Origin: Patescibacteria group bacterium | GTDB lineage: Bacteria; Patescibacteriota; Gracilibacteria; Peribacterales; Peribacteraceae | DNA length: 64,000 nucleotides | Assembly (NCBI GenBank): GCA_018814875.1 | Contig: JAHIYH010000045.1 | Coordinates: 13,316-77,315 of the forward strand | Reading direction: 5' to 3' | Shown here: piece after piece, positions 3,671-58,355 of the stretch | Layout: the number at the start of each line of letters is the position of its first letter | Numbering within the stretch: position 1 is the stretch's first letter | Made by a program: the position numbers and the translations under genes | The notes under the pieces: model-generated | What the model was told of the DNA's origin: nothing | Database searches by the model: none | Seen by the model: only the letters and a program-made list of their open reading frames with translations

Positions 3671-5292
3671 ATTTAGAGTCACGTCATAATTGGCATGAAT
3701 ACGATGCTATAAGAGAGAGCCGTCTTCTTAATAAAAATTTTGAACCCAAGATGACTTTTAATCTTGATCCGTATGAACCGGAGAAAAAGTATGATACGAG
3801 AGGAAATGAGGTTGATAATGAAGCAAGAGAACAAAGAAGCTGGACACGAAAGGAGTTTTCAGAGCATATGAAGAGTATTTTTGAGCATCATTATAATCAG
3901 CATAAGCAGTCTTCAGAGGATCTGGATGAAGCGGCTGAAGGGATGGGAATAGTACTCGATAAAATAGAAGAGGAAATATTCGAAAATAATGAAGAATTTC
4001 AGCGTGGATCTGCTGATTATTACAAGGCATATCAAAAAAGCTGGAAATTATATATGGATAATGCGAAATTTGATGCAAATAATTCAATTCTTAAATCAGG
4101 TGTATTTACACATAAAAAAGCTCCTGGTATTTACAAGAAAGGAAAACTTGTTGCCATCCCTGGTAATCTACCTTCCGGTGTAGGAACGAATTTTAATGCA
4201 CGTAGTGAGGTTGCGAGCGCGAATGTTAGAGAAATAGACGGAAAACCACGAGATTTAGATAGGGGATGGTTACTAAAAGAGTATGCGAATACAAAAGCAA
4301 CTCTTACAGGAATATGGAATAAGGAGAAATACCTCGAGAGTCATCCCGAAGCAACTGAGGAAGATTACAATCGTCTCTTAGAAAAGAGAGTATTCGAGAA
4401 AGCGAAATTTAGTGCAGATGATATTGCACTTTATAATCTTGAAAAGGAGCGTTATGTGGCACCACCTGAGCCGATTCTTGAACTGGGGAAATTGGAGGAT
4501 GCTGTAGATTTCCGTGATCGGGATGAGGTAGCAGAAGTTATGAGAAAAGCACTGGGTTTAAGCATTGACGATGAGAGCGATTTTAATAGTCAAATACATA
4601 TTGAAGAGCTAGAAGCAGAAAATAAACCGGAAGGTTATGCACAAGTGTTGACGTTCCGTACAAAGGGACCAAAACGTGAAGGTGAAGAAGTTAAAAGGCC
4701 GATTGATGGCTTGACATTAGTTGGACGTAAATTGGATAACACCAAAGAGGCAGAAGTGACTGTTCTAGATTTTAGGCAGATTGATGATCTTGCCAGTGAA
4801 GTAATTGGAGGAGATAAGGAAAAATTCTATTCTCATAGGGAACTCAAATTTCTGCATGATTGGTCAGATCAGTTGCAAAACAATGTTTTGAATCCACAAA
4901 TTTCTATAATTAGTGATGATGGTATAAATAACATTGCCTTAGTTCGTGGCATTATTGAACGCGGGAAAAGGCATAAGAAGATAGATAATTTTCTAGTAAG
5001 TAATAATAATAATTGGAAAGATAATGATTTTAGTACTAATGAAAATAAAATGAATACTTTTGTTGATAACATTAAGAAATTTGTTGAAGAGCAAGGTAAC
5101 CAAGAAGCTATGTGGGGAGATATTATAAAAGTATTACCTTCAAAGTTTGAAGGCAGAGTTGCAGAAGTAAAGACTGTGGCATTAATTAATGAGCTGGAAG
5201 CCTTAAGGATGTCTAATCCTTTGTATGCACAAGCACCAAAGGAAGAGAAAGAAGATGAAGAACCTGATGTGATAGCAATTGATACTGTTTAA
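3667..5292 (+). CDS. hypothetical protein (541 aa, charged, no recognisable domain)
   Basis: long uninterrupted ORF in AT-rich DNA; coupled to upstream ORF; ORFan to my eye. Confidence 0.7.
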   Translation: MNLESRHNWHEYDAIRESRLLNKNFEPKMTFNLDPYEPEKKYDTRGNEVDNEAREQRSWTRKEFSEHMKSIFEHHYNQHKQSSEDLDEAAEGMGIVLDKIEEEIFENNEEFQRGSADYYKAYQKSWKLYMDNAKFDANNSILKSGVFTHKKAPGIYKKGKLVAIPGNLPSGVGTNFNARSEVASANVREIDGKPRDLDRGWLLKEYANTKATLTGIWNKEKYLESHPEATEEDYNRLLEKRVFEKAKFSADDIALYNLEKERYVAPPEPILELGKLEDAVDFRDRDEVAEVMRKALGLSIDDESDFNSQIHIEELEAENKPEGYAQVLTFRTKGPKREGEEVKRPIDGLTLVGRKLDNTKEAEVTVLDFRQIDDLASEVIGGDKEKFYSHRELKFLHDWSDQLQNNVLNPQISIISDDGINNIALVRGIIERGKRHKKIDNFLVSNNNNWKDNDFSTNENKMNTFVDNIKKFVEEQGNQEAMWGDIIKVLPSKFEGRVAEVKTVALINELEALRMSNPLYAQAPKEEKEDEEPDVIAIDTV

Positions 5293-5360: not shown

Positions 5361-6356
5361 TTACATAGTGACGTACAGCTTCTTGCCGTCTTCGCCGGGA
5401 GTGTAGTACCTTGTTGGCTGGTTCGTTTCGTCGCAGTAAACCTTTACCCCGAGTCCTTTTTGATGCCATGCCGTAAAGATGGCGGCAAGTGCCAAGAAGT
5501 TGGGATTGGGTTTATTGACCCTCGTAAGGAGATTGTCCAGATCGTCGCCGAGTCCCTCGGGTATCGTTGTTTGATGCGATACCTTTTGCTTTAGGGTTTC
5601 AGCGAGATCGGCAATCTCTGTCTGATCTCTGCTGATCAACACTTTGCTGATGGCATCGAATTGTTCGCAGAGGACCGCCGTTTCTTCAACGGCAGCCGCC
5701 GGCTCGGCCGTATAGTCGTCCGGGCATACCATCGAAAGTACACGCACTGCTTCGAAGAACTCGACTCGTGCAGTTTTGCGCGCATTGGTCGCCGCTTCCA
5801 AGTCGGAGGTTATCTTTCCAAGATCGCCCCGATGACTCTCAATCCAAGGCTTCACTTCATCTAGCTTGCTGAAGTTGTACTTTTTCCTGACGGAAGCCTC
5901 GTATTCATCCAAGGCTTTTTGAGCGGCGGCTTGAGCTGAGCGTAGTTGCTCCACCTTTCCTAAGGCTTCTTGAGCAGTAGCTTGAGCTGAGCGTAGTTGC
6001 TCTAATTGAGCCTTCAGTTCTACGGCAGGGTCCGCGGCCGGAGCTTTGGGCTGTTCAGCAGCCGGAATTGGCTTTTGGTTGAACAGTTTGTCCGCTTGCT
6101 TTTTCCACGTCGCCGTAGTCTGGTTGAGATTATCAACCAACTTACTGTGTCTCGCTAGAGCTGACGATATCTCCTTGTACCGCTCTTGCGCCTCTTCCGC
6201 CTTTTTGTAGTCAGCTTTTGCCGACTCCAATTCCTCAAGCGCGGCCAACACTTCTTCTTGCACAGCAACCACTACTAGCTCTGGTACCTGTGCTGCTTGG
6301 ACTGCAGTGGCCAACATGGCGGCCAACAACGCGACGCTGCTAACGAAAGTCCTCAT
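5361..6356 (-). CDS. secreted coiled-coil protein, ORFan, compositionally atypical (GC-rich)
   Basis: N-terminal signal-like MRTFVSSVALLAAMLATAVQA; Ala/Glu/Gln-rich heptad-like repeats incl. duplicated QLRSAQA(T/A)AQ(E/K)AL; GC visibly above genome background. Confidence 0.7.
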   Translation of the reverse strand: MRTFVSSVALLAAMLATAVQAAQVPELVVVAVQEEVLAALEELESAKADYKKAEEAQERYKEISSALARHSKLVDNLNQTTATWKKQADKLFNQKPIPAAEQPKAPAADPAVELKAQLEQLRSAQATAQEALGKVEQLRSAQAAAQKALDEYEASVRKKYNFSKLDEVKPWIESHRGDLGKITSDLEAATNARKTARVEFFEAVRVLSMVCPDDYTAEPAAAVEETAVLCEQFDAISKVLISRDQTEIADLAETLKQKVSHQTTIPEGLGDDLDNLLTRVNKPNPNFLALAAIFTAWHQKGLGVKVYCDETNQPTRYYTPGEDGKKLYVTM

Positions 6357-8429: not shown

Positions 8430-8475
8430 GTGTACAAACGTACACCCTATTCAGTTGTTGTGCAATAGAAAAATA

Positions 8476-8535
8476 CCTACTTTACCTTCCTTACCTTCTT
8501 TACCTTCTTTACCTTCTTTACTTTCCTTACCTTCT
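8476..8535. repeat. right arm (CCTTCTTTA/CCTTCCTTA)n flanking four-helix-bundle gene
   Basis: cctactttaccttccttaccttctttaccttctttaccttctttactttccttaccttc; 9-nt period. Confidence 0.7.
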
Positions 8536-20157: not shown

Positions 20158-23100
20158 ATGGAACCTTCTTCTGCCACAAAATCACACTCTACCCCAAGTT
20201 CTAAAGCAGGAAATCCATCTGCTGATATGCCCAAGACAGAAGGAAAAGGGCTTACGATCGAGAGGCGATTTACAACTCCGGGAAGTGATCCTCTGGAAGA
20301 AGTAACATACGAGAAGCGTCGCAGTTGTATTAGTAATTCTGATGGATCTGTAGTATTCGAGATGGATGGAGCAGAGATTCCTGTGGATTGGAGTCAGATG
20401 GCTACGGATATCATGGTCAGCAAATATTTTCGTAAGGCAGAAGTACCTCAAGTTGATGAACAGGGGAATGTTCTCAAAGATGATAAAGGTAATGTTGTTA
20501 CGGGCCCAGAACGCAGCGTAAAGCAAGTAGTGCGTCGTCTTTCGGGATGTTGGAGACATTGGGGTCAGCAGTATAATTACTTCGAGACAGCACAGGATGC
20601 GCAGGCCTTCGAGGATGAACTCAGTTACATGTTGGTTCATCAGATGGCAGCCCCAAACAGTCCTCAGTGGTTTAACACTGGATTAAATTATTCTTATGGC
20701 ATCACGGGTCCTGCGCAAGGACATCACTATTGTGACCCCAAAACAGGTGAGGTACAGCAGAGCATGGATGCGTACACTCATCCGCAGCCACATGCATGCT
20801 TCATTCAATCCGTTAGTGATGACATGGTAAATCCAGGAGGACTCATGGACTTGTGGGTTCGCGAAGCACGCTTGTTCAAATATGGATCAGGTACCGGCAC
20901 CAACTTTTCCGAGATTCGCGGATTTGGAGAGGCACTCTCCGGTGGAGGGGTAAGTAGTGGGCTGATGAGCTTCCTAAAGATTGGTGATCGCGCTGCTGGT
21001 GCTATCAAATCCGGTGGAACCACACGACGTGCCGCCAAAATGGTTACACTCAATCTGGATCATCCGGATATCGAGGAATTTATCGATTGGAAAGTAAAAG
21101 AAGAAAAGAAAGTAGCTGCAATGGCAGCTGCAGGATATTCGACAGACTTCAATAGCGAAGCGTATCAAACTGTTTCTGGTCAGAATTCCAATAACTCCGT
21201 TCGTGTTCCGCATTCGTTCTTCGAACAAGTGGAGAAAGATGGAGATTGGGATTTGTATTGGCGTACAGAGCTCAAGTGTGCTGCAAAAGAAGGGCGGACT
21301 CCACAGTCATGTAAGACACTAAAAGCGCGCGATCTATGGGAGAAAATTGGTTATGCGGCATGGGCGTGTGCAGATCCTGGAGTGCAATACGATACAACCA
21401 TTAATGATTGGCACACGTGTCCCAAAGACGGGCGCATCAATGCAAGTAATCCATGTAGCGAGTATATGTTCTTAGATAACACTGCGTGCAATCTAGCCTC
21501 GATCAACCTAATGAAATTCTACGACGAAGAGCATGGAACATTCGAGTTGGAAAAGTTCAAGCATGCTGTGCGCATTTGGACAATCGTTCTAGAGATTTCT
21601 GTTTTAATGGCGCAATTCCCAAGTGAAGAGATTGCAAAACTAAGTTATCAATTCCGAACACTTGGTTTGGGTTATGCAAATCTAGGTGCATTACTTATGC
21701 GTATGGGCATTCCATATGATTCCGATAACGGACGTGCACTTTGTGCAGCTATCACATCAATTCTTACTGGAGAGTCTTATGCAACATCCGCAGAAATGGC
21801 GAAGCACTTGGGTCCGTTCCCGCGCTTTGAACACAATCGTGAAGATATGTTGCGTGTGATCCGTAATCACAGGCGTGCTGCTTACAATGCGCCAGCTGCA
21901 GAATACGAAGAACTAAATGCACTCCCTGTAGGTATCGATCAGAAAATATGCCCTGCAGATCTTCTGGAGTCGGCCAAAGAATGTTGGGACAGAGCACTCG
22001 CTCAAGGAGAGAAGAACGGTTTTCGCAATGCACAGGTCAGCGTGATTGCACCTACTGGCACGATTGGGTTACTTATGGATTGTGATACCACAGGAGTTGA
22101 GCCGGATTTTGCACTCGTTAAATTCAAGAAACTTTCTGGTGGTGGATCTATGAAGATTATCAATCAGTCAGTTGCATCTTCTTTGAAAAAATTAGGACAC
22201 AGCGAACAAGAAATCTATGACATCATACGTTATGTCTCTGGTAGTTTGTCACTCGAAGGTGCACCGCACATAAATAGTCAATCGCTCAAAGACAAAGGAT
22301 GCACCGACGAGGACATTGCACAAATTGAAAAGACATTGCCCGGAGTCTTTGAACTTTCGTTCGCCTTCACGCGATTCATACTGGGTGATGAGGCCATGGA
22401 ACGTCTTGGCATTACTTCGGAGCAACTGGATGATCCGGCTTTCAATCTATTAAAGGAGCTCGGGTTCTCTAAAAAAGAGATCGAAGAAGCTAATATTTAC
22501 ATCTGTGGTCATATGACACTGGAAGGTGCTCCTTATATAAAGGATGAGAATCTCGCGGTCTTCGATTGTGCCAGCAAGTGTGGCAAGGATGGCAGGCGTT
22601 ACATATCTGCAGAAGGCCACATTCGCATGATGGCAGCAGTTCAGCCATTTATTACCGGATCCATTTCCAAGACCATCAATCTTCCACACGAAGCAACTGT
22701 GGAAGACATCAAACAGGCATATTTCCTCAGTTGGAAACTAGGGCTAAAATCGAACGCCCTATATAGGGATGGATGCAAACTAAGTCAGCCACTCTCTGTT
22801 TCTTCCGATAAAGAGAAAAAGGAGTTAAAGGAGAAAAAGGAAACAAAGGAGGTTGTTGAAAGGATTGTCATCAAAGAAGTACCGCGAAGGCGCAAACTTC
22901 CTGATGAGCGCATGTCTATTACTCACAAGTTCTCGGTTGCTGGGCACGAAGGATATTTGCATGTAGGGCTTTACGAAGATGGCACACCGGGCGAGATCTT
23001 TATCAAGATGAGTAAAGAAGGATCCACACTCTCTGGCGTTATGGATACTTTGGCTCTTAGTTTGTCCATGAACCTACAATATGGAGTACCTTTGGATGTT

Positions 23101-23565
23101 CTATGTCAGAAGCTTGTTCGTACACGCTTCGAACCGATGGGTATGACTATTAACAAAGAAATCCCAATGGTAAAAAGCCTGATGGACTATCTCGGTAGAT
23201 GGCTTGCGCTCAAGTTTCTTCCACGTGAACAGGCAGAACAATTCCACAATAAGGATTTGGTAAATCTTGCTTATACTGAGGGGACCAAGAGTAAAGATGC
23301 ATTTGCGATGCGGCTTCCTGTTGTAGATGAGGGGGCACAAGCTCAGACTCCAAAGCTGGATTTCGAAACAGCAGTGGAAAAGAAGACACGCGAAGAGGTA
23401 GTAGAGGCTTCCGAAGAAGTTGGAATTGTAGAAACAAAACTTACTATGGCGCGCCAACAGGGATTCACAGGTTCTATGTGTGGGAACTGTGGTTCTCTTA
23501 GGGTTAAAGCAAATGGTTCTTGCGAAGTTTGTTTGGATTGTGGGGGGACCTCTGGTTGTAGTTAG
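20158..23565 (+). CDS. nrdJ: adenosylcobalamin-dependent (class II) ribonucleotide reductase
   Basis: 1135 aa; NPCSEY active-site region, long-type NrdJ layout, C-terminal CxxC...CxxC tail (CGNCGS...CEVCLDCGG). Confidence 0.9.
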   Translation: MEPSSATKSHSTPSSKAGNPSADMPKTEGKGLTIERRFTTPGSDPLEEVTYEKRRSCISNSDGSVVFEMDGAEIPVDWSQMATDIMVSKYFRKAEVPQVDEQGNVLKDDKGNVVTGPERSVKQVVRRLSGCWRHWGQQYNYFETAQDAQAFEDELSYMLVHQMAAPNSPQWFNTGLNYSYGITGPAQGHHYCDPKTGEVQQSMDAYTHPQPHACFIQSVSDDMVNPGGLMDLWVREARLFKYGSGTGTNFSEIRGFGEALSGGGVSSGLMSFLKIGDRAAGAIKSGGTTRRAAKMVTLNLDHPDIEEFIDWKVKEEKKVAAMAAAGYSTDFNSEAYQTVSGQNSNNSVRVPHSFFEQVEKDGDWDLYWRTELKCAAKEGRTPQSCKTLKARDLWEKIGYAAWACADPGVQYDTTINDWHTCPKDGRINASNPCSEYMFLDNTACNLASINLMKFYDEEHGTFELEKFKHAVRIWTIVLEISVLMAQFPSEEIAKLSYQFRTLGLGYANLGALLMRMGIPYDSDNGRALCAAITSILTGESYATSAEMAKHLGPFPRFEHNREDMLRVIRNHRRAAYNAPAAEYEELNALPVGIDQKICPADLLESAKECWDRALAQGEKNGFRNAQVSVIAPTGTIGLLMDCDTTGVEPDFALVKFKKLSGGGSMKIINQSVASSLKKLGHSEQEIYDIIRYVSGSLSLEGAPHINSQSLKDKGCTDEDIAQIEKTLPGVFELSFAFTRFILGDEAMERLGITSEQLDDPAFNLLKELGFSKKEIEEANIYICGHMTLEGAPYIKDENLAVFDCASKCGKDGRRYISAEGHIRMMAAVQPFITGSISKTINLPHEATVEDIKQAYFLSWKLGLKSNALYRDGCKLSQPLSVSSDKEKKELKEKKETKEVVERIVIKEVPRRRKLPDERMSITHKFSVAGHEGYLHVGLYEDGTPGEIFIKMSKEGSTLSGVMDTLALSLSMNLQYGVPLDVLCQKLVRTRFEPMGMTINKEIPMVKSLMDYLGRWLALKFLPREQAEQFHNKDLVNLAYTEGTKSKDAFAMRLPVVDEGAQAQTPKLDFETAVEKKTREEVVEASEEVGIVETKLTMARQQGFTGSMCGNCGSLRVKANGSCEVCLDCGGTSGCS

Positions 23566-23620
23566 TTGATTACTTGATACTCTGCGCTTAGCCCGCAGGC
23601 GTAGCGCAGACACCTTTAAA

Positions 23621-23968
23621 ATGGAAGAACTTGATATCCCCATTCTTCGCAAATGTTATGATCTTTATAAGACCTTTCACGGACTGCGCGGTCTTGTATC
23701 CAAAGCAGACCGTTATACTCTTTGGCAAAGGTCGGAAAATCTGATCTTGGATGTTATCGAAGGTATTCTGTTTGCAAGTCAGCTTCCTAAGGCTAAAAAG
23801 CTGCCACACTTGGAACAAGTGAGTATGAAACTCAATATGCTTCGTATTTTTCTGCGTCTCACAAAAGAAACAAAGATACTCGATCTTAAGAAGTGTCTCC
23901 TCTTACAAGAGATAGTCGACGAAATTGGTAGAATGCTTGGAGGATGGATGAAATCAGTGAAGGACTAA
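23621..23968 (+). CDS. avd: Avd-like accessory variability determinant (small basic four-helix-bundle protein)
   Basis: 115 aa, helical and Lys/Arg-rich, distant relative of the IVS-protein family; TR starts 47 nt after its stop codon. Confidence 0.7.
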   Translation: MEELDIPILRKCYDLYKTFHGLRGLVSKADRYTLWQRSENLILDVIEGILFASQLPKAKKLPHLEQVSMKLNMLRIFLRLTKETKILDLKKCLLLQEIVDEIGRMLGGWMKSVKD

Positions 23969-23996
23969 AAAACTCCCTCTGTCAGATTGGAGGGAG
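23966..23996 (-). terminator. rho-independent terminator of the TR-sense (minus strand) transcript
   Basis: minus strand reads ctccct-N12-agggag followed by TTTTTT; no T-run on the plus strand. Confidence 0.6.
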
Positions 23997-24014
23997 TAGT
24001 AGAGATGGGGAGAA

Positions 24015-24131
24015 GGACTGCCGAGCGGCCGACAACCACAAGTTGTCATTGCGATTGTCATCCAAGTTTCAGTTGACGTTCACGCGACCCTCGTTGATAT
24101 CGAGTTCGACGTAGTTGTCATCAGGGAGCGC
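24015..24131 (-). other. DGR template repeat (TR), 117 nt
   Basis: aligns gap-free to VR1 and VR2; the minus-sense TR has 29 A; in-frame reading gives ALPDDNYVELDINEGRVNVN*NLDDNRNDNLWLSAARQS (AAC-rich, contains a stop, so non-coding). Confidence 0.9.
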
Positions 24132-24291
24132 TATTTGCCCATTCCCTTCTAGGAGCACTGGAAGTCGAGGTTTACTGTCTTACGACCTATATCCTCTTCT
24201 CCCTGTATTTCATTTGGGAGCAATCCCGCGCATGCGGGATACCTCCACTAGAAATGAGCAAGAAGTTCTTCTCGATCTCAGCTCACTCGCT

Positions 24292-24538
24292 ATCGTGCTC
24301 CATAGAGACACGTTACTCTGGTGAGTTTCCACAATCGCTATCCGCTTAGTGGTAGCAGAGATGAGGTGCACTGCGAGACGAAATCGTAATCTCGGCTACA
24401 AAAGCATTGCACATATTGAGTATATCAAAAAAAGAACCCCCGCGAAAAAAATGTCGCGGAGGTTCCAGCCTTCGCCTATCGGCTACGGCCGGCAGGCAAG
24501 GTGTCAAAAGGGTCAAGCCCTCAAGACTTCAAGGTTCA
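24292..24538. repeat. conserved 3' flank of target gene 1 (copy a of ~247-bp repeat)
   Basis: about 6 mismatches in 247 nt versus 25437..25683 by hand alignment; contains terminator and GC-rich element 24466..24500. Confidence 0.85.
24427..24465 (-). terminator. rho-independent terminator of target gene 1
   Basis: minus strand gaacctccgcga-N8-tcgcgggggttc followed by TTTTTTT. Confidence 0.7.
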
Positions 24539-25225
24539 GGACTTCCGAGCGGCCGACAGCCACAAGTGGCCATAGCGACCGCCACCCAAGCCGCAGACGA
24601 CGACCACGCGACCCCCGTCGATATCGAGCGCGACGTAGTCGCCATCAGGGAGCGCTTCTTCGCAACGACACCAGTCGTTTCTCAGGAGATCGTCGCCAAC
24701 CTCCGTCAGATGGACAAGTAGGGCTGTCGCGGCGACACAAACAGGTGCCGGTTGCCATTCAGCGTCAATACCGGACAGATGTTCAGTCTGCTCACTCCAT
24801 TTTTTGCGGTTCGAGTTCGGAACAGGTAGTAGTAGACGGTAATAGCCCGACTCTGCTTTCCATTCGTGCTGCTCGTACCAGTCCTGATCTTGCATCATGC
24901 GCTCTTGTCCAGCTTTGCTTTCGCGCAGCTCTTTTAGACTCCAACCACCGTAATAGATGACGACTTCGCCATCTTCGGGCTTCGGAGTTGGGACGTTGCA
25001 CTCTGCAGGCAGACCGAGGATACGGCTTACCGCAGTAGCATCGTAGACGATGCCATGCTGGGGACATCCTGCTTGCATGTGACGGACGAGACGTTGCATT
25101 TGAGACGGATCATCAATGCTCGGCTGAAGATCAGTCGAGAGATCGAGACCCTGCTTAGCAGCGCGTTCTGCCCATGCCAGCAGCTTCTTGGTAACAGCAA
25201 ATTCGTCGACAATAGGGTTAGCCAT
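24536..25225 (-). CDS. DGR variable protein 1 (229 aa from the ATG with RBS)
   Basis: aaggag RBS before ATG 25225 (ORF-track start 25282 unlikely); C-terminal 39 codons are VR1; paralog of 25681..26355; no N-terminal hydrophobic segment. Confidence 0.85.
   Translation of the reverse strand: MANPIVDEFAVTKKLLAWAERAAKQGLDLSTDLQPSIDDPSQMQRLVRHMQAGCPQHGIVYDATAVSRILGLPAECNVPTPKPEDGEVVIYYGGWSLKELRESKAGQERMMQDQDWYEQHEWKAESGYYRLLLPVPNSNRKKWSEQTEHLSGIDAEWQPAPVCVAATALLVHLTEVGDDLLRNDWCRCEEALPDGDYVALDIDGGRVVVVCGLGGGRYGHLWLSAARKS
24539..24655 (-). other. DGR variable region VR1
   Basis: 20 substitutions versus TR, all at TR adenines, plus 1 non-A difference and 1 in the terminal GC-rich IMH-like segment (hand count); encodes ALPDGDYVALDIDGGRVVVVCGLGGGRYGHLWLSAARKS*. 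Confidence 0.9.
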
Positions 25226-25329
25226 TATCGTTCTCCTTTTGTCCTCAAACCGTGAGGAACGGGCTTGCTCGGAATGAGACAAGCATGCTACGCCCTTTCA
25301 AAGGCACAGGACGCTTGTCTCAGTGAGAC

Positions 25330-25437
25330 CTTGACGATGCTCTGAAAGACCATCATTATATAGTTTATAACTAAATTCATATCTGTCAATGTTCGATTTT
25401 GTCCTATACTGCCAAATCTGTTTGTAAATATGGTTAA
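25330..25437. repeat. 108-bp repeat, copy a (5' region of target 1)
   Basis: identical by eye to 26488..26595; carries TTGACG-N17-CATTAT on the plus strand. Confidence 0.85.
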
Positions 25438-25683
25438 TCGTGCTCCATAGAGACACGTTACTCTGGTGAGTTTCCACAATCGCTATCCGCTTAGTGGTAG
25501 CAGAGATGAGGTGCACTGCGAGACGAAATTGTAATCTCGGCTTCAATAGCATTACACATATCAAGTATATCAAAAAAAGAACCCCCGCGAAAAAAATGTC
25601 GCGGAGGTTCCAGCCTTCGCCTATCGGCTACGGCCGGCAGGCAAGGTGTCAAAAGGGTCAAGCCCTCAAGACTTCAAGGTTCA
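25437..25683. repeat. conserved 3' flank of target gene 2 (copy b)
   Basis: see 24292..24538. Confidence 0.85.
25572..25610 (-). terminator. rho-independent terminator of target gene 2
   Basis: same hairpin plus T-run as 24427..24465. Confidence 0.7.
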
Positions 25684-26355
25684 GGACTTCCGAGCGGCCG
25701 ACAACCACAAGTTGCCACGGCGATTGCCATCCAAGAAGCAGTAGACGTACACGCGACCCTCGTGGATATCGAGTACGACGTAGAGGCCATCAGGGAGCGC
25801 CTCTTCGCAACGACACCAGTCGTTTTTGAGAAGATCGTTTCTGGTCTCCTTCAAATGAACGAGCAGGGTGGAAGCGCAGAGTGCAACTGGAGCAACTTCT
25901 TCACCAGGCAGAAGGAGATCCTTCTGTTCGGTTAAGTTTTTCCTGTTGCTGTCCGGCACTGGCAAACGGACACGGTAGATGCCCGCCGTCAGCTTCGCAC
26001 TTGCGCAGTCGTACTTGTCGTACCAATCCTGCTGGTGCATCAGCTCCTTGCCGACCTCACAGTCACGCAGATCTTGCAAAGACCAGTCTCCGACGCGGAT
26101 AATGATCTCGTCAGGTGCGGGTTCTGGGAGCGGTTCCGTACTCGCTTCTCCGAAGCCGAGGATTGCAATGGCATCGTAGGTGAAGGACGGAAGTCGCACC
26201 GGCCACACGTCTGCAAGACGTTGCATAGAAGCAGCGTCAGCGTCGAGCATGGCAAGCCATCGCTCTGGCGTGATACCCGCCTCTTGGAGTCGCTTTAGGC
26301 CTGTCGTAATCTTCTTCTGTGGCAGACCAGTCAAGCTTGTTGCGGCGGTCTTCAT
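25681..26355 (-). CDS. DGR variable protein 2 (224 aa)
   Basis: aaggag RBS; C-terminal VR2; roughly half of residues shared with protein 1 over the C-terminal ~150 aa (GDWSL..L, QDWY, LPVP.SNRK, NDWCRCEEALPDG). Confidence 0.85.
   Translation of the reverse strand: MKTAATSLTGLPQKKITTGLKRLQEAGITPERWLAMLDADAASMQRLADVWPVRLPSFTYDAIAILGFGEASTEPLPEPAPDEIIIRVGDWSLQDLRDCEVGKELMHQQDWYDKYDCASAKLTAGIYRVRLPVPDSNRKNLTEQKDLLLPGEEVAPVALCASTLLVHLKETRNDLLKNDWCRCEEALPDGLYVVLDIHEGRVYVYCFLDGNRRGNLWLSAARKS
25684..25800 (-). other. DGR variable region VR2
   Basis: 14 substitutions versus TR, all at TR adenines, plus the shared IMH-like difference; encodes ALPDGLYVVLDIHEGRVYVYCFLDGNRRGNLWLSAARKS*. Confidence 0.9.
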
Positions 26356-26487
26356 GAGATTCTCCTTTACCCCTTAGGGGCATACAAGTATTACCGATTG
26401 TACCGTCGGCTCGGACTTACTCGGAAACGAGACAAGCACCCTATGCACTGCAAAAAATACACAGAGCGCTTGTCTCTTTACATGAAT

Positions 26488-26595
26488 CTTGACGATGCTC
26501 TGAAAGACCATCATTATATAGTTTATAACTAAATTCATATCTGTCAATGTTCGATTTTGTCCTATACTGCCAAATCTGTTTGTAAATATGGTTAA
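26488..26595. repeat. 108-bp repeat, copy b (divergent region between target 2 and RT)
   Basis: identical by eye to 25330..25437. Confidence 0.85.
26489..26517 (+). promoter_or_regulatory. candidate promoter for the RT gene
   Basis: TTGACG - 17 nt - CATTAT, about 85 nt upstream of RT ATG; the same motif is duplicated at 25331..25359. Confidence 0.4.
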
Positions 26596-26603
26596 ATGAA
26601 CAA

Positions 26604-27653
26604 ATGAAAGTATATAGAAACATCTTTGAACGGATCATTTCGATGGAGAACATTTTTACTGCGTGGGAGGAGTTTCGTAAAGGAAAGCAAGCACGAATGG
26701 ATGTGCAGCAGTTTGAGCGCCACCTTGAACAAAATCTTTTTCAATTACACAGGGAACTTTCGGGCGGCACCTATAAACATCAACCCTATAGTGCCTTTAC
26801 AATCTGTGATCCAAAACAACGTCATATTCACAAAGCATCTGTTCGTGATCGTATCGTTCACCATGCCGTATTCTCTGTTCTCAATCCGATTTTCGAGCCG
26901 ACGTTTATTGCTCATTCTTTCTCGTGTAGAAAGGACAAAGGTACACACAAAGCAGTAGATGCGCTGGAACGAATGTTGCGTAAGGAAAGCAGAAATAATA
27001 GCCGTACCTGTTTTGCCCTTCAGTGTGATATCAGCAAATTTTTCGATTCTGTGTCGCACCCAATTCTAAAATCCCAGATCACAAAGCGCATCCGTGATAG
27101 AGATGTCCTCTTACTGATGGATGAAATAATCGGTAGCTTCACTGCTCCGCAATTCGATACCGTTTCGCAGTCTGGCATTCCCATTGGGAATCTCACGTCA
27201 CAGCTCTTTGCCAACGTGTACCTCAATGCCTTGGATCAATTTATGAAGCATGAATTGAAGGTATGTCACTATGCACGCTACACTGACGATTTTGTGATCG
27301 TATCTACAGATCGTGTGTATCTACAATCTCTCATTAAGACTATTGGATCATTCCTCCAACAGGAACTTTCTCTTGATCTGCATCCACGCAAGGTCACAAT
27401 CCGAAAGTTCACACAGGGTATAGATTTTCTTGGATATGTACTTCTTCCTCATCATCGGGTTCTGCGCACACGCACAAAACATCGCATGTTTCGCAAGCTT
27501 CATAAGAGGGCATCGATACATAAAACAGGATCGGAAACCGCTGAAAGTGTTGAGCAATCTCTGTATTCGTATCTTGGTGTTCTCTCTCATGCCAACACCT
27601 ACAGGCTTCGCTCCAAACTTCTCAATCATTATTGGTTCTGGATGACGGAGTAG
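26604..27653 (+). CDS. DGR-type reverse transcriptase
   Basis: RT motifs 1-7 with IGNLTSQ (the I/LGxxxSQ DGR signature in place of the group II QGxxxSP) and YTDDF (YxDD); 349 aa, no maturase or endonuclease domain. Confidence 0.9.
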   Translation: MKVYRNIFERIISMENIFTAWEEFRKGKQARMDVQQFERHLEQNLFQLHRELSGGTYKHQPYSAFTICDPKQRHIHKASVRDRIVHHAVFSVLNPIFEPTFIAHSFSCRKDKGTHKAVDALERMLRKESRNNSRTCFALQCDISKFFDSVSHPILKSQITKRIRDRDVLLLMDEIIGSFTAPQFDTVSQSGIPIGNLTSQLFANVYLNALDQFMKHELKVCHYARYTDDFVIVSTDRVYLQSLIKTIGSFLQQELSLDLHPRKVTIRKFTQGIDFLGYVLLPHHRVLRTRTKHRMFRKLHKRASIHKTGSETAESVEQSLYSYLGVLSHANTYRLRSKLLNHYWFWMTE

Positions 27654-27678: not shown

Positions 27679-28086
27679 ATGTCACACTGGTTAGATCTCC
27701 TTCCCTCAAATGAAAAGGCAAAAATTCGTTCCAAGCTTAGGAGCCCCGAAGCATACGAAAGGTTACGCGAAAGTGTGAAGGGTCCTGAGGATCTGGAACG
27801 TGAAATGAAAGTAAACGAGTCTTTTGCTTCTATCAGTTTCCAGTTAGAGACACAGCCTAAATTAAAAGAAGAACTTAAAGATCAAGTACTTAAAGATATT
27901 GATGCACATGGTATAGAAGAAGTTTTGGAATCATCAATCGAAGTAGGAGGGGAGTTTGAAGTTTTGATTGAAGAGAACCCAGATACACACGAGGATCAGT
28001 TGGTAGTTTCGCCGGAGGGGAATGTTTCTGAATCTATTCCTATAAAATCCTCTTATAGTGAGAAATATTTATCTATGTTTGGTTGA
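27679..28086 (+). CDS. hypothetical acidic protein (135 aa)
   Basis: clean ORF 25 nt after RT stop, same strand; no recognisable domain. Confidence 0.5.
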   Translation: MSHWLDLLPSNEKAKIRSKLRSPEAYERLRESVKGPEDLEREMKVNESFASISFQLETQPKLKEELKDQVLKDIDAHGIEEVLESSIEVGGEFEVLIEENPDTHEDQLVVSPEGNVSESIPIKSSYSEKYLSMFG

Positions 28087-58243: not shown

Positions 58244-58355
58244 TCAAGAAGGTAAAGAAGGTCAAGAAGGTAAGGAAAGTAGGGGTTGTTATTCAGAATA
58301 CCGTCTTTACCTTCAATACCTTCCTTACCTTCCTTACCTACCTTACCTTCCTTAC
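58244..58355. repeat. hairpin with (GGTMARGAA)n arms, no cargo gene
   Basis: tcaagaaggtaaagaaggtcaagaaggtaaggaaagtagg versus ctttaccttcaataccttccttaccttccttacctaccttaccttccttac. Confidence 0.7.

Follow-up and report, generated by a model that had tools for sequence, protein, structure and literature searches.

A block-inverted diversity-generating retroelement of a Patescibacteria bacterium and the conserved, folded leader of its template repeat

In the diversity-generating retroelement (DGR) of Bordetella phage BPP-1 a 140-nucleotide (nt) spacer, Sp, that lies 3' of the template repeat (TR) is required, and its nucleotide A56 primes through the 2'-OH (PMC6182149). According to a cryo-EM preprint (10.1101/2023.10.23.563531), Sp nucleotides 3-33 form an Avd-binding stem-loop, nucleotides 47-56 pair with TR nucleotides 117-129 in a template:primer duplex, and nucleotides 59-70, two nucleotides on, pair with a segment 5' of TR in a 'cPRT Stop' duplex; thereafter Sp has a small stem-loop, unpaired adenosines, a single-stranded 'Thumb Ring' and a long bRT-binding stem-loop. 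Among the DGRs of the candidate phyla radiation (CPR) an arrangement called B3, TR-(avd)-RT, where avd is the accessory variability determinant gene and RT the reverse transcriptase gene, is reported for 90% by Wu et al. (2018, PMC5758913). In "inverted DGRs" the TR, the variable repeat (VR) and the target gene are on the strand opposite that of RT (Schillinger et al. 2012, PMC3521204), and a TR-opposite-RT arrangement is mentioned again in PMC5758913 (2018). Here we analyze the DGR in a 64,000-nt stretch of the genome of a Patescibacteria group bacterium (assembly GCA_018814875.1, contig JAHIYH010000045.1, positions 13,316 to 77,315 of the forward strand); this whole stretch is called the window below, and coordinates without a locus name are positions in it. 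The element is a block-inverted derivative of B3, not B3 proper, and its TR is preceded by a leader that is conserved, folded and, apparently, so far undescribed.

The layout in the window is avd(+) - TR(-) - target(-) - RT(+), and its parts are these:

23621-23968, plus strand: avd (Pfam bAvd, 1.7e-15), homologues of which adjoin TR in related loci
24014-24131, minus strand (the adenine-bearing strand): TR, from alignment A1 and its A-biased mismatches
24536-25282, minus strand: target gene 1, whose C-terminal end holds VR1 (24538-24655); the targets of related loci are homologous to it
25681-26355, minus strand: target gene 2, which carries VR2 (25683-25800) and is 49% identical to target 1
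26604-27653, plus strand: the DGR reverse transcriptase, RT (RVT_1, 5e-22), with the motifs IGNLTSQ and YTDD in its translation

TR, VR1 and VR2 are three copies of a 118-nt repeat in direct orientation, and on the minus strand 20/22 and 14/15 of the mismatches between TR and the two VRs are at TR adenines. The first of the 118-nt copies is the TR, and its template strand is the minus strand, because the differences are almost only at its A's. A preliminary description of this DNA was thus right to place the adenine-bearing strand in the same sense as the targets, with avd and RT on the plus strand, and right that an RNA of TR sense necessarily comes from the minus strand, apart from the avd and RT mRNAs. 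One non-A difference, C in TR and A in the VRs, is at the 3' end, in a GC-rich region with a difference of the initiation of mutagenic homing (IMH/IMH*) type; GTCGGCCGCTCGG is common, with GGCAGTCC in TR and GGAAGTCC in both VRs. VR1 and VR2 end exactly at the stop codons of the two minus-strand open reading frames (ORFs), and their in-frame AAC, AAT and GAC codons put the variable A's at codon positions 1-2, as in DGRs. The locus thus has the RT motifs, an A-biased TR/VR pair, a VR at the 3' end of the target, the IMH/IMH* difference and Avd, all features by which DGRs are recognized. No Pfam family was matched by target gene 1. The relatives of the RT in genome and metagenome collections are all from CPR/Patescibacteria, the nearest being metagenome-assembled genomes (MAGs) of Peregrinibacteria/Peribacteria, and the locus is a DGR of a CPR bacterium of Peregrinibacteria/Peribacteria-like affinity. 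Another TR copy co-oriented with RT, an eventuality raised in the preliminary description, is not present in the 64-kb window, nor was any additional TR copy found there.

Layouts of related loci were called by a script for A-biased repeat pairs together with tblastn for avd. About 45 of these loci have the layout target(+) - TR(+) - avd(-) - RT(+), which is B3, so that a TR running into the 3' end of avd is the CPR norm and not an anomaly; their RT, avd, target and leader families are the same as those of the window. In the window TR (end at 24014) is 45 nt from the avd stop codon (23968) and convergent with avd, and an RNA of TR sense does head toward the avd 3' end as first described; avd is on the opposite strand immediately 3' of TR, as in B3. 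B3 elements (PMC5758913) also resemble the window in having an avd-type gene convergent with TR, a target directly upstream on the TR strand, and small targets without known domains. The window differs from B3 in that the whole target-TR-(avd) block is flipped: TR (minus) is not co-oriented with RT (plus), avd is not head to head beside RT but 2.6 kb from it and co-oriented with it, RT is head to head with a target gene instead of avd, and there are two tandem targets. The block target-TR-(avd) has been turned as one unit relative to RT, and such a flip leaves TR convergent with avd and makes it, in addition, antisense to RT. The layout had been seen as a departure from catalogued DGRs, and this does not hold, since convergence of TR and avd is a property of B3 and a TR on the opposite strand is a property of the "inverted DGRs". 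In the B3 loci (for example L009:5996-6001 and L049:2567-2568) the avd and RT start codons are head to head, 0-5 nt apart or overlapping, so each promoter must sit inside the coding sequence of the other gene.

Besides the window, at least ten related metagenomic loci have the inverted layout: L001, L003, L004, L012, L014, L016, L039 and L043, and in part L038 and L007. An RT tree of loci L001-L090 (neighbour-joining, no support values) has the inverted loci in two separate clades, each beside B3 loci; the avd (80-85% identical) and leader of the window resemble those of the other inverted clade and of B3 locus L045, and its RT is nearer to that of B3 locus L041. Recurrent block inversion, or exchange of an avd-TR-target module, is suggested. 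Flanking inverted repeats, such as might mark a site-specific invertible segment, are represented among the repeats of the window by weak 20-nt, 75% matches only. The inverted DGRs of Shewanella baltica, Vibrio sp. RC586 and Photobacterium angustum (PMC3521204) have, like the window, RT on the strand opposite TR, VR and target, and they show that TR RNA and RT mRNA can come from different transcripts. They are from Proteobacteria, whereas the window is from CPR, and a leader RNA is undescribed there; the CPR inversion is likely independent of the gammaproteobacterial ones, since all the relatives that were found are CPR/Patescibacteria MAGs. Other rearrangements are seen as well. L029 (= L056) has its TR at 5460-5585 (plus strand) and VRs 1-4 kb away at 1643-1768 and 4246-4370 (minus strand), with the -10 motif and leader that are described below both kept. 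At L007:4742-5236 an RT and a target/VR-like segment are accompanied by a leader that is cut short after its first ~250 nt, with TR and avd not detected; the locus may be a decayed inverted-type DGR.

Our alignment of 20 loci of both layouts in TR-sense orientation (A2) shows a shared order of VR stop, TTGA repeats, target terminator, TGnTAnnnT motif, a leader of about 280 nt, and TR. The VR-to-TR spacing, start to start, is roughly 410-570 nt in the related loci in which both were detected. In the window the interval of about 400 nt between VR1 and TR holds the target terminator, an extended -10 motif and the leader, and the parts of this region and of the region just beyond TR are, in minus-strand order:

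24496-24532, minus strand: 4-5 TTGA copies with a period of 8-9 nt, next to the VR1 stop on its 3' side; conserved in 19/20 loci
24433-24466, minus strand: intrinsic terminator of target gene 1, 13-base-pair (bp) stem and T7, from a terminator scan; kept in relatives
24419-24427, minus strand: extended -10 promoter-like motif TGATATACT (TGnTAnnnT), candidate promoter of the TR RNA; A2 columns 201-209
24366-24412, minus strand: 5' leader hairpin, where the TR RNA is predicted to begin; helices 1-3, 12/16 pairs compensatory
24277-24365, minus strand: middle part of the leader, conserved within subgroups, with no consensus structure across all loci
24132-24276, minus strand: leader core, matched by covariance model R1 with 142.7 bits, E 2.8e-33 (matched span 24131-24276)
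24250-24271, minus strand: contiguous leader strand for helices Pa (24271-24262) and Pb (24261-24250), from RNAalifold and covariation
24217-24246, minus strand: leader stem-loop, outer 4 bp and inner hairpin 24223-24240; helices 7 and 8 (helices 2 and 3 of a 42-sequence alignment, all pairs compensatory)
24204-24216, minus strand: most conserved single-stranded block, AAAUGAAAUACAG, with AAAU.CA invariant in the 20-locus alignment
24160-24203, minus strand: long leader stem-loop capped by a GNRA-type tetraloop; helices 9 and 10 (helices 4-6 of the 42-sequence alignment)
24135-24146, minus strand: 3' strand of Pb, 12 nt just 5' of TR, partner 24261-24250; helices 5 and 6
24013-24022, minus strand: 3' strand of Pa, the last ~10 nt of TR (IMH* end), partner 24271-24262, from RNAalifold on A2
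23967-23997, minus strand: post-TR stem-loop (8 bp, 10-nt loop) and U5, candidate terminator and/or Avd-binding-type stem-loop

The leader shows strong covariation, and does so on the TR-sense strand only. RNAalifold on A2 gives 61 pairs, 43 of them with compensatory changes; 95.1% of the alignment cells are paired, versus 81.4% in column shuffles and 40-49% with slid partners, the pairs with double changes number 43 versus 21 (shuffles) and 13-20 (slid), and the covariation score of 0.489 (versus 0.231) was reached by 0/500 shuffles. The structure belongs to the minus-strand RNA in the window, since the consensus energy is -55.1 kcal/mol for the TR-sense strand versus -19.8 for the antisense strand. 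Folded by itself, the 451-nt RNA of the window has -153.3 kcal/mol (z -3.2) and reproduces the consensus helices, including the long-range one. The covariance model of the leader core, R1, has matches in the window and in 47 loci, 48 sources in all, the most distant with about 47% RT identity; its match abuts the TR start on the TR-sense strand whatever the orientation of RT (31 loci tested), and in 31/31 loci with a defined TR the TR/VR homology starts -2 to +8 nt past it. The region 24132-24292 had been called unique; it is so within the window, but it is the best-conserved part of the leader and recurs in 47 related loci. The atcccgc-gcat-gcgggat hairpin noticed there is real (24223-24240), and it covaries (helix 8).

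An Rfam search over 23600-26700 at E<=1 gave no match besides a chance small-RNA match elsewhere, and at gathering thresholds the whole window gave one tRNA only. No published description of the leader was found in the searchable literature, although an earlier one may exist; Handa et al. examined only 40 nt upstream and 100 nt downstream of TR. A plus-strand ORF, 24115-24324, lies over the leader and was treated as non-coding, because it has no Pfam match and the relatives have indels in it that are not multiples of three.

Two long-range helices join the leader to the two ends of TR. One continuous leader strand makes both, Pa with the last nucleotides of TR and Pb with the segment that ends 3 nt before TR, and TR is therefore looped out between them. 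The junction of Pa and Pb, ACUYC|KUG, is among the most conserved positions of the leader, and between the Pb strands there is also, after the long stem-loop, a conserved GGUG...AGA linker. Compensatory pairs in Pb number 8/12 in A2 and 11/12 in the 42-sequence alignment. In Pa (helix 4), which is present in the single-sequence minimum free energy fold as well, 93.9% of cells are paired and 4 pairs have a compensatory change; between subgroups it covaries as GAAGGAAC-U/AGUUCCUUC versus GAAGGAAG-U/ACUUCCUUC. In 14 loci outside the prediction set this complementarity of leader strand and TR 3' end recurs in unrelated sequences, for example AUCGAGCA/UGCUCGAU, AGCAAGAC/GUCUUGCU and UUCUUGAGA/UCUCAAGAA. 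The partner of the TR 3' end had been sought in 23960-24014; the TR end pairs instead with leader positions 24271-24262. The last A-to-N change was considered as a marker of the cDNA start and is uninformative, since the GC-rich IMH* has almost no A's; some distant loci differ at an A within the Pa strand.

We consider it likely that the TR of this block-inverted B3 DGR is carried by a separate RNA that bears the leader, with TR clamped by Pa and Pb and with an Sp-like part 5' of TR. As to promoter use, termination and the roles of the helices in cDNA priming and stopping, we infer the following. TR would be expressed as its own minus-strand RNA of about 450 nt, in the order -10 motif (24427-24419), 5' hairpin (24412-24366), leader to 24132, TR (24131-24014), and hairpin with U-run (23997-23967), and RT and Avd, made from separate plus-strand mRNAs, would act on it in trans. 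By analogy with BPP-1, Pa would be a template:primer-type duplex and Pb a stop duplex, RT would make contact with the A-rich single strand and the long stem-loop, and the post-TR hairpin would be an Avd-binding-type stem-loop. Extension would then copy from about 24023 toward 24131 and meet Pb there. The outcome would be a circularly permuted DGR RNA, with its Sp-like part 5' of TR.

Several points weigh against this reading. The -10 motif has no evident -35, and our sigma-70 scan does not call the site. The post-TR hairpin has -12.4 kcal/mol but a z of only -1.1 against shuffles, its 10-nt loop is long for a terminator, and in L004, L012, L041, L006 and L029 the hairpin has no T-run. The Pa pair that changes between subgroups is a C-C mismatch in 6/20 loci, and the mean Pa duplex energy in the 14 test loci, -13.3 kcal/mol versus -9.2 for a shuffled leader strand, reaches p<0.05 against shuffles in only 5/14, with L018 no better than chance. 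The 42 distinct sequences of alignment A4, in which 96.2% of cells are paired (66.5% shuffled) and 32/33 pairs are compensatory, were aligned by fitting to the model, and these pair counts are inflated. Finally, BPP-1 Sp and the CPR leader have no detectable sequence similarity, and the correspondence between them would be one of order and topology and not of sequence homology.

Of the other explanations, the one that survives best has no dedicated TR promoter: the TR RNA would be a read-through 3' extension of the target-1 mRNA and the leader a processed 3' untranslated region (UTR). Target 1, leader and TR are indeed contiguous and co-directional, and no canonical -35/-10 pair was called between them (the sigma-70/terminator scan calls only the two target terminators and sites in a 108-nt repeat, below). 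On the other hand, target and leader are separated by a strong, conserved terminator (13-bp stem, T7), and directly after it comes the TGnTAnnnT motif, whose T, A and T positions are invariant in 20/20 A2 loci, with the first conserved helix beginning 7 nt past it. The motif and leader are moreover retained in L029/L056, which has no target gene upstream and its targets remote and on the other strand. By comparison among the loci, TGATATACT at 24427-24419 is a candidate for the TR-RNA promoter, which the preliminary description had found not obvious. Read-through from target 1, its suggested alternative, is less necessary now that a candidate -10 motif follows the target-1 terminator; it is possible as a minor route, and as the full explanation we think it unlikely.

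The preliminary description also had the 3' tail of the TR RNA as the only candidate for a spacer/priming region. Stated as a model, TR would be on a short transcript of its own, whose ~50-nt tail (23960-24013) would serve as a miniature Bordetella Sp, in place of the separate RNA with its Sp-like part 5' of TR that we prefer. There is a hairpin with a T-run directly 3' of TR, on the minus strand ACUCCCUC-N10-GAGGGAGU (23997-23972) and then U5 (23971-23967), with 5 G-C pairs out of 8 bp. The T-run overlaps the avd TAA (23966-23968), and the plus strand has no T-run after the hairpin. The minus-strand-only terminator first described at the avd stop is thus present as hairpin and T-run, but with the stem ctccctc-N10-gagggag and not ctccct-N12-agggag, and its distance from TR is not 55 nt but 16 nt to the hairpin and 47 nt to the end of the T-run. 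Our terminator scan does not call it, because the loop is longer than 8 nt. Folding alone is not significant, so the argument for the hairpin is one of positional conservation: hairpins of differing sequence, with stems of 8 to 21 bp, are at the same place in 14/20 aligned loci (all nine inverted loci, L045, L041, L006, L051 and L029). A T-run follows in the window, L039, L016, L001, L003 and L051; since the hairpin is kept across relatives and the T-run is not, the conserved feature is the stem-loop. In a B3 subgroup (L008, L009, L011, L019, L048 and L049) a run of 7-10 G's replaces a clean hairpin. An Avd-binding stem-loop just downstream of TR has been reported for 207/278 Avd-containing DGRs, and the post-TR stem-loop would fit such an element; that it also terminates the TR RNA in the window is plausible from its sequence.

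The hairpin with its T-run, its conserved position and the stem-loops reported for other DGRs speak for a short 3' spacer, and other facts speak against it. Only 16 unpaired nt separate TR from the hairpin, and the BPP-1 spacer needs ~140 nt (PMC6182149). The gap from TR to the avd stop is 4-78 nt in B3 and inverted loci, and in L023, L024, L027 and L030 TR nearly abuts the stop (4-15 nt between), so a 3' spacer is not found throughout the family. It is the upstream leader that pairs, with covariation, with the 3' end of TR, and a conserved, covarying candidate of ~280 nt exists 5' of TR. Co-directional avd-TR-RT loci of B1 type (L072, L075, L076 and L079; RT ~34% identical, from similar marine metagenomes) have the reverse, a strongly folding spacer of 232-244 nt 3' of TR and about 43 nt between avd and TR, and the leader has no sequence similarity to these B1-type 3' spacers, in which R1 finds no match. 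We regard the 3'-tail model as quite improbable. Least probable by our estimate, and hardly to be expected, is a leader that is a structured RNA with a non-RT role (a regulator of TR-RNA or target expression, or an independent small RNA, with regulatory or coincidental pairing to the TR end): its lack of sequence homology to BPP-1 Sp and the uneven support for Pa in distant loci would suit this, but the leader ends -2 to +8 nt from the TR start in 31/31 loci, it follows TR and not RT upon block inversion, Pa and Pb bracket exactly the copied segment, and leader loci lack room for a 3' spacer while B1-type loci show the reverse.

The complete DGR adjoins a class II ribonucleotide reductase gene (20158-23565). 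Its two target genes arose by a tandem duplication of 1145 nt, with units 24292-25436 and 25437-26595, and this duplication structure is common to L039, L038 and the window. Two further features belong to it:

25437-25693, minus strand: incomplete repeat of the region from the target terminator through the -10 motif (25572-25564) to ~135 nt into the leader; repeat D1, 95% identity, nhmmer 2.1e-51
26488-26595, no strand assigned: 108-nt element between target 2 and RT, 100% identical to 25330-25437 (repeat D3), with promoter-like sites on both strands

The truncated leader copy (25693-25437) is fused to the target-1 promoter region, that is, to the 108-nt element at 25330-25437. This element has TTGACA-16-TAAACT on the minus strand and weaker sites on the plus strand, and its copies are 100% identical while the remainder of the duplicated unit is ~95% identical or less. 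The target 5'-UTRs have hairpins (25275-25322 and 26426-26479), between the promoter-like site and the start codon, in which the stem GAGACAAGC/GCTTGTCTC is conserved and the interior is divergent. The TTGA array is present also at 25641-25677 (minus strand), 3' of the VR2 stop (in related loci, A2 columns 14-60); it may be an element by which the target site is recognized in homing. A GC-rich insertion of 32 nt, placed between the TTGA repeats and the target terminator, occurs in both window copies (24470-24501 and 25615-25646) and is absent from 19/19 related loci aligned. Directly after RT is a plus-strand ORF for 135 amino acids of acidic character (27679-28086), with no Pfam match and no homologue in any related locus, which probably does not belong to the DGR. 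Short CTTTACCTTC-like tandem repeats at 8472-8534 and 58297-58355, ~85% alike, are a false positive of the TR/VR detector.

The inverted layout is a rearranged form of a catalogued CPR architecture, and taken alone it does no more than confirm that supply in trans is possible for the TR RNA, RT and Avd. The leader offers CPR-type elements their first concrete candidate for a functional DGR RNA; it gives predicted RNA ends, two helices that delimit the copied segment, and a conserved junction that might be a priming site, and with R1 the start and strand of TR can be located in CPR metagenomes without recourse to the detection of VRs. It raises the questions of where cDNA starts and stops in B3-type DGRs that have no room for a 3' spacer, and of whether the Bordetella RNA architecture is universal or can be permuted. 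As a tentative generalization, which we find arguable though not yet persuasive, CPR B3 DGRs and their inverted derivatives may use a circularly permuted DGR RNA, with an Sp-equivalent scaffold 5' of TR, only an Avd-type stem-loop 3' of it, and retron-like upstream priming, the whole being a self-contained TR unit that can work in either orientation. If true, the permuted RNA would concern the type that predominates in the phyla richest in DGRs.

The BPP-1 RNA, as described in the preprint (10.1101/2023.10.23.563531), and the RNA with the CPR leader have several features in common. In both, one strand makes adjacent duplexes with the TR 3' end and with the segment just before TR (Pa and Pb here, both covarying); in both, this strand is followed in the same order by a stem-loop, an A-rich single strand and a long stem-loop; and both BPP-1 and the window have a stem-loop just 3' of TR. 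The difference is one of placement. In BPP-1, Sp is 3' of TR, where it takes up the 140 nt before brt, whereas in the window the corresponding strand is 5' of TR, only 47 nt follow TR, and a structured spacer of ~140 nt is lacking there. The polarity fits priming, for the Pa leader strand has its 3' end (~24262) toward the interior of TR. If the leader does prime, then the nucleotide that primes would be located 5' of the template within one RNA, as it is in the msr-msd RNA of retrons, and a long-range duplex would link the 5' region with the template's 3' end, as the a1/a2 repeats of retrons do. The leader, TR and tail gave no Rfam match and have no msr-like sequence. Unlike retrons, the element of the window has a DGR-type RT with Avd, and its product would be for A-mutagenic homing into the VRs.

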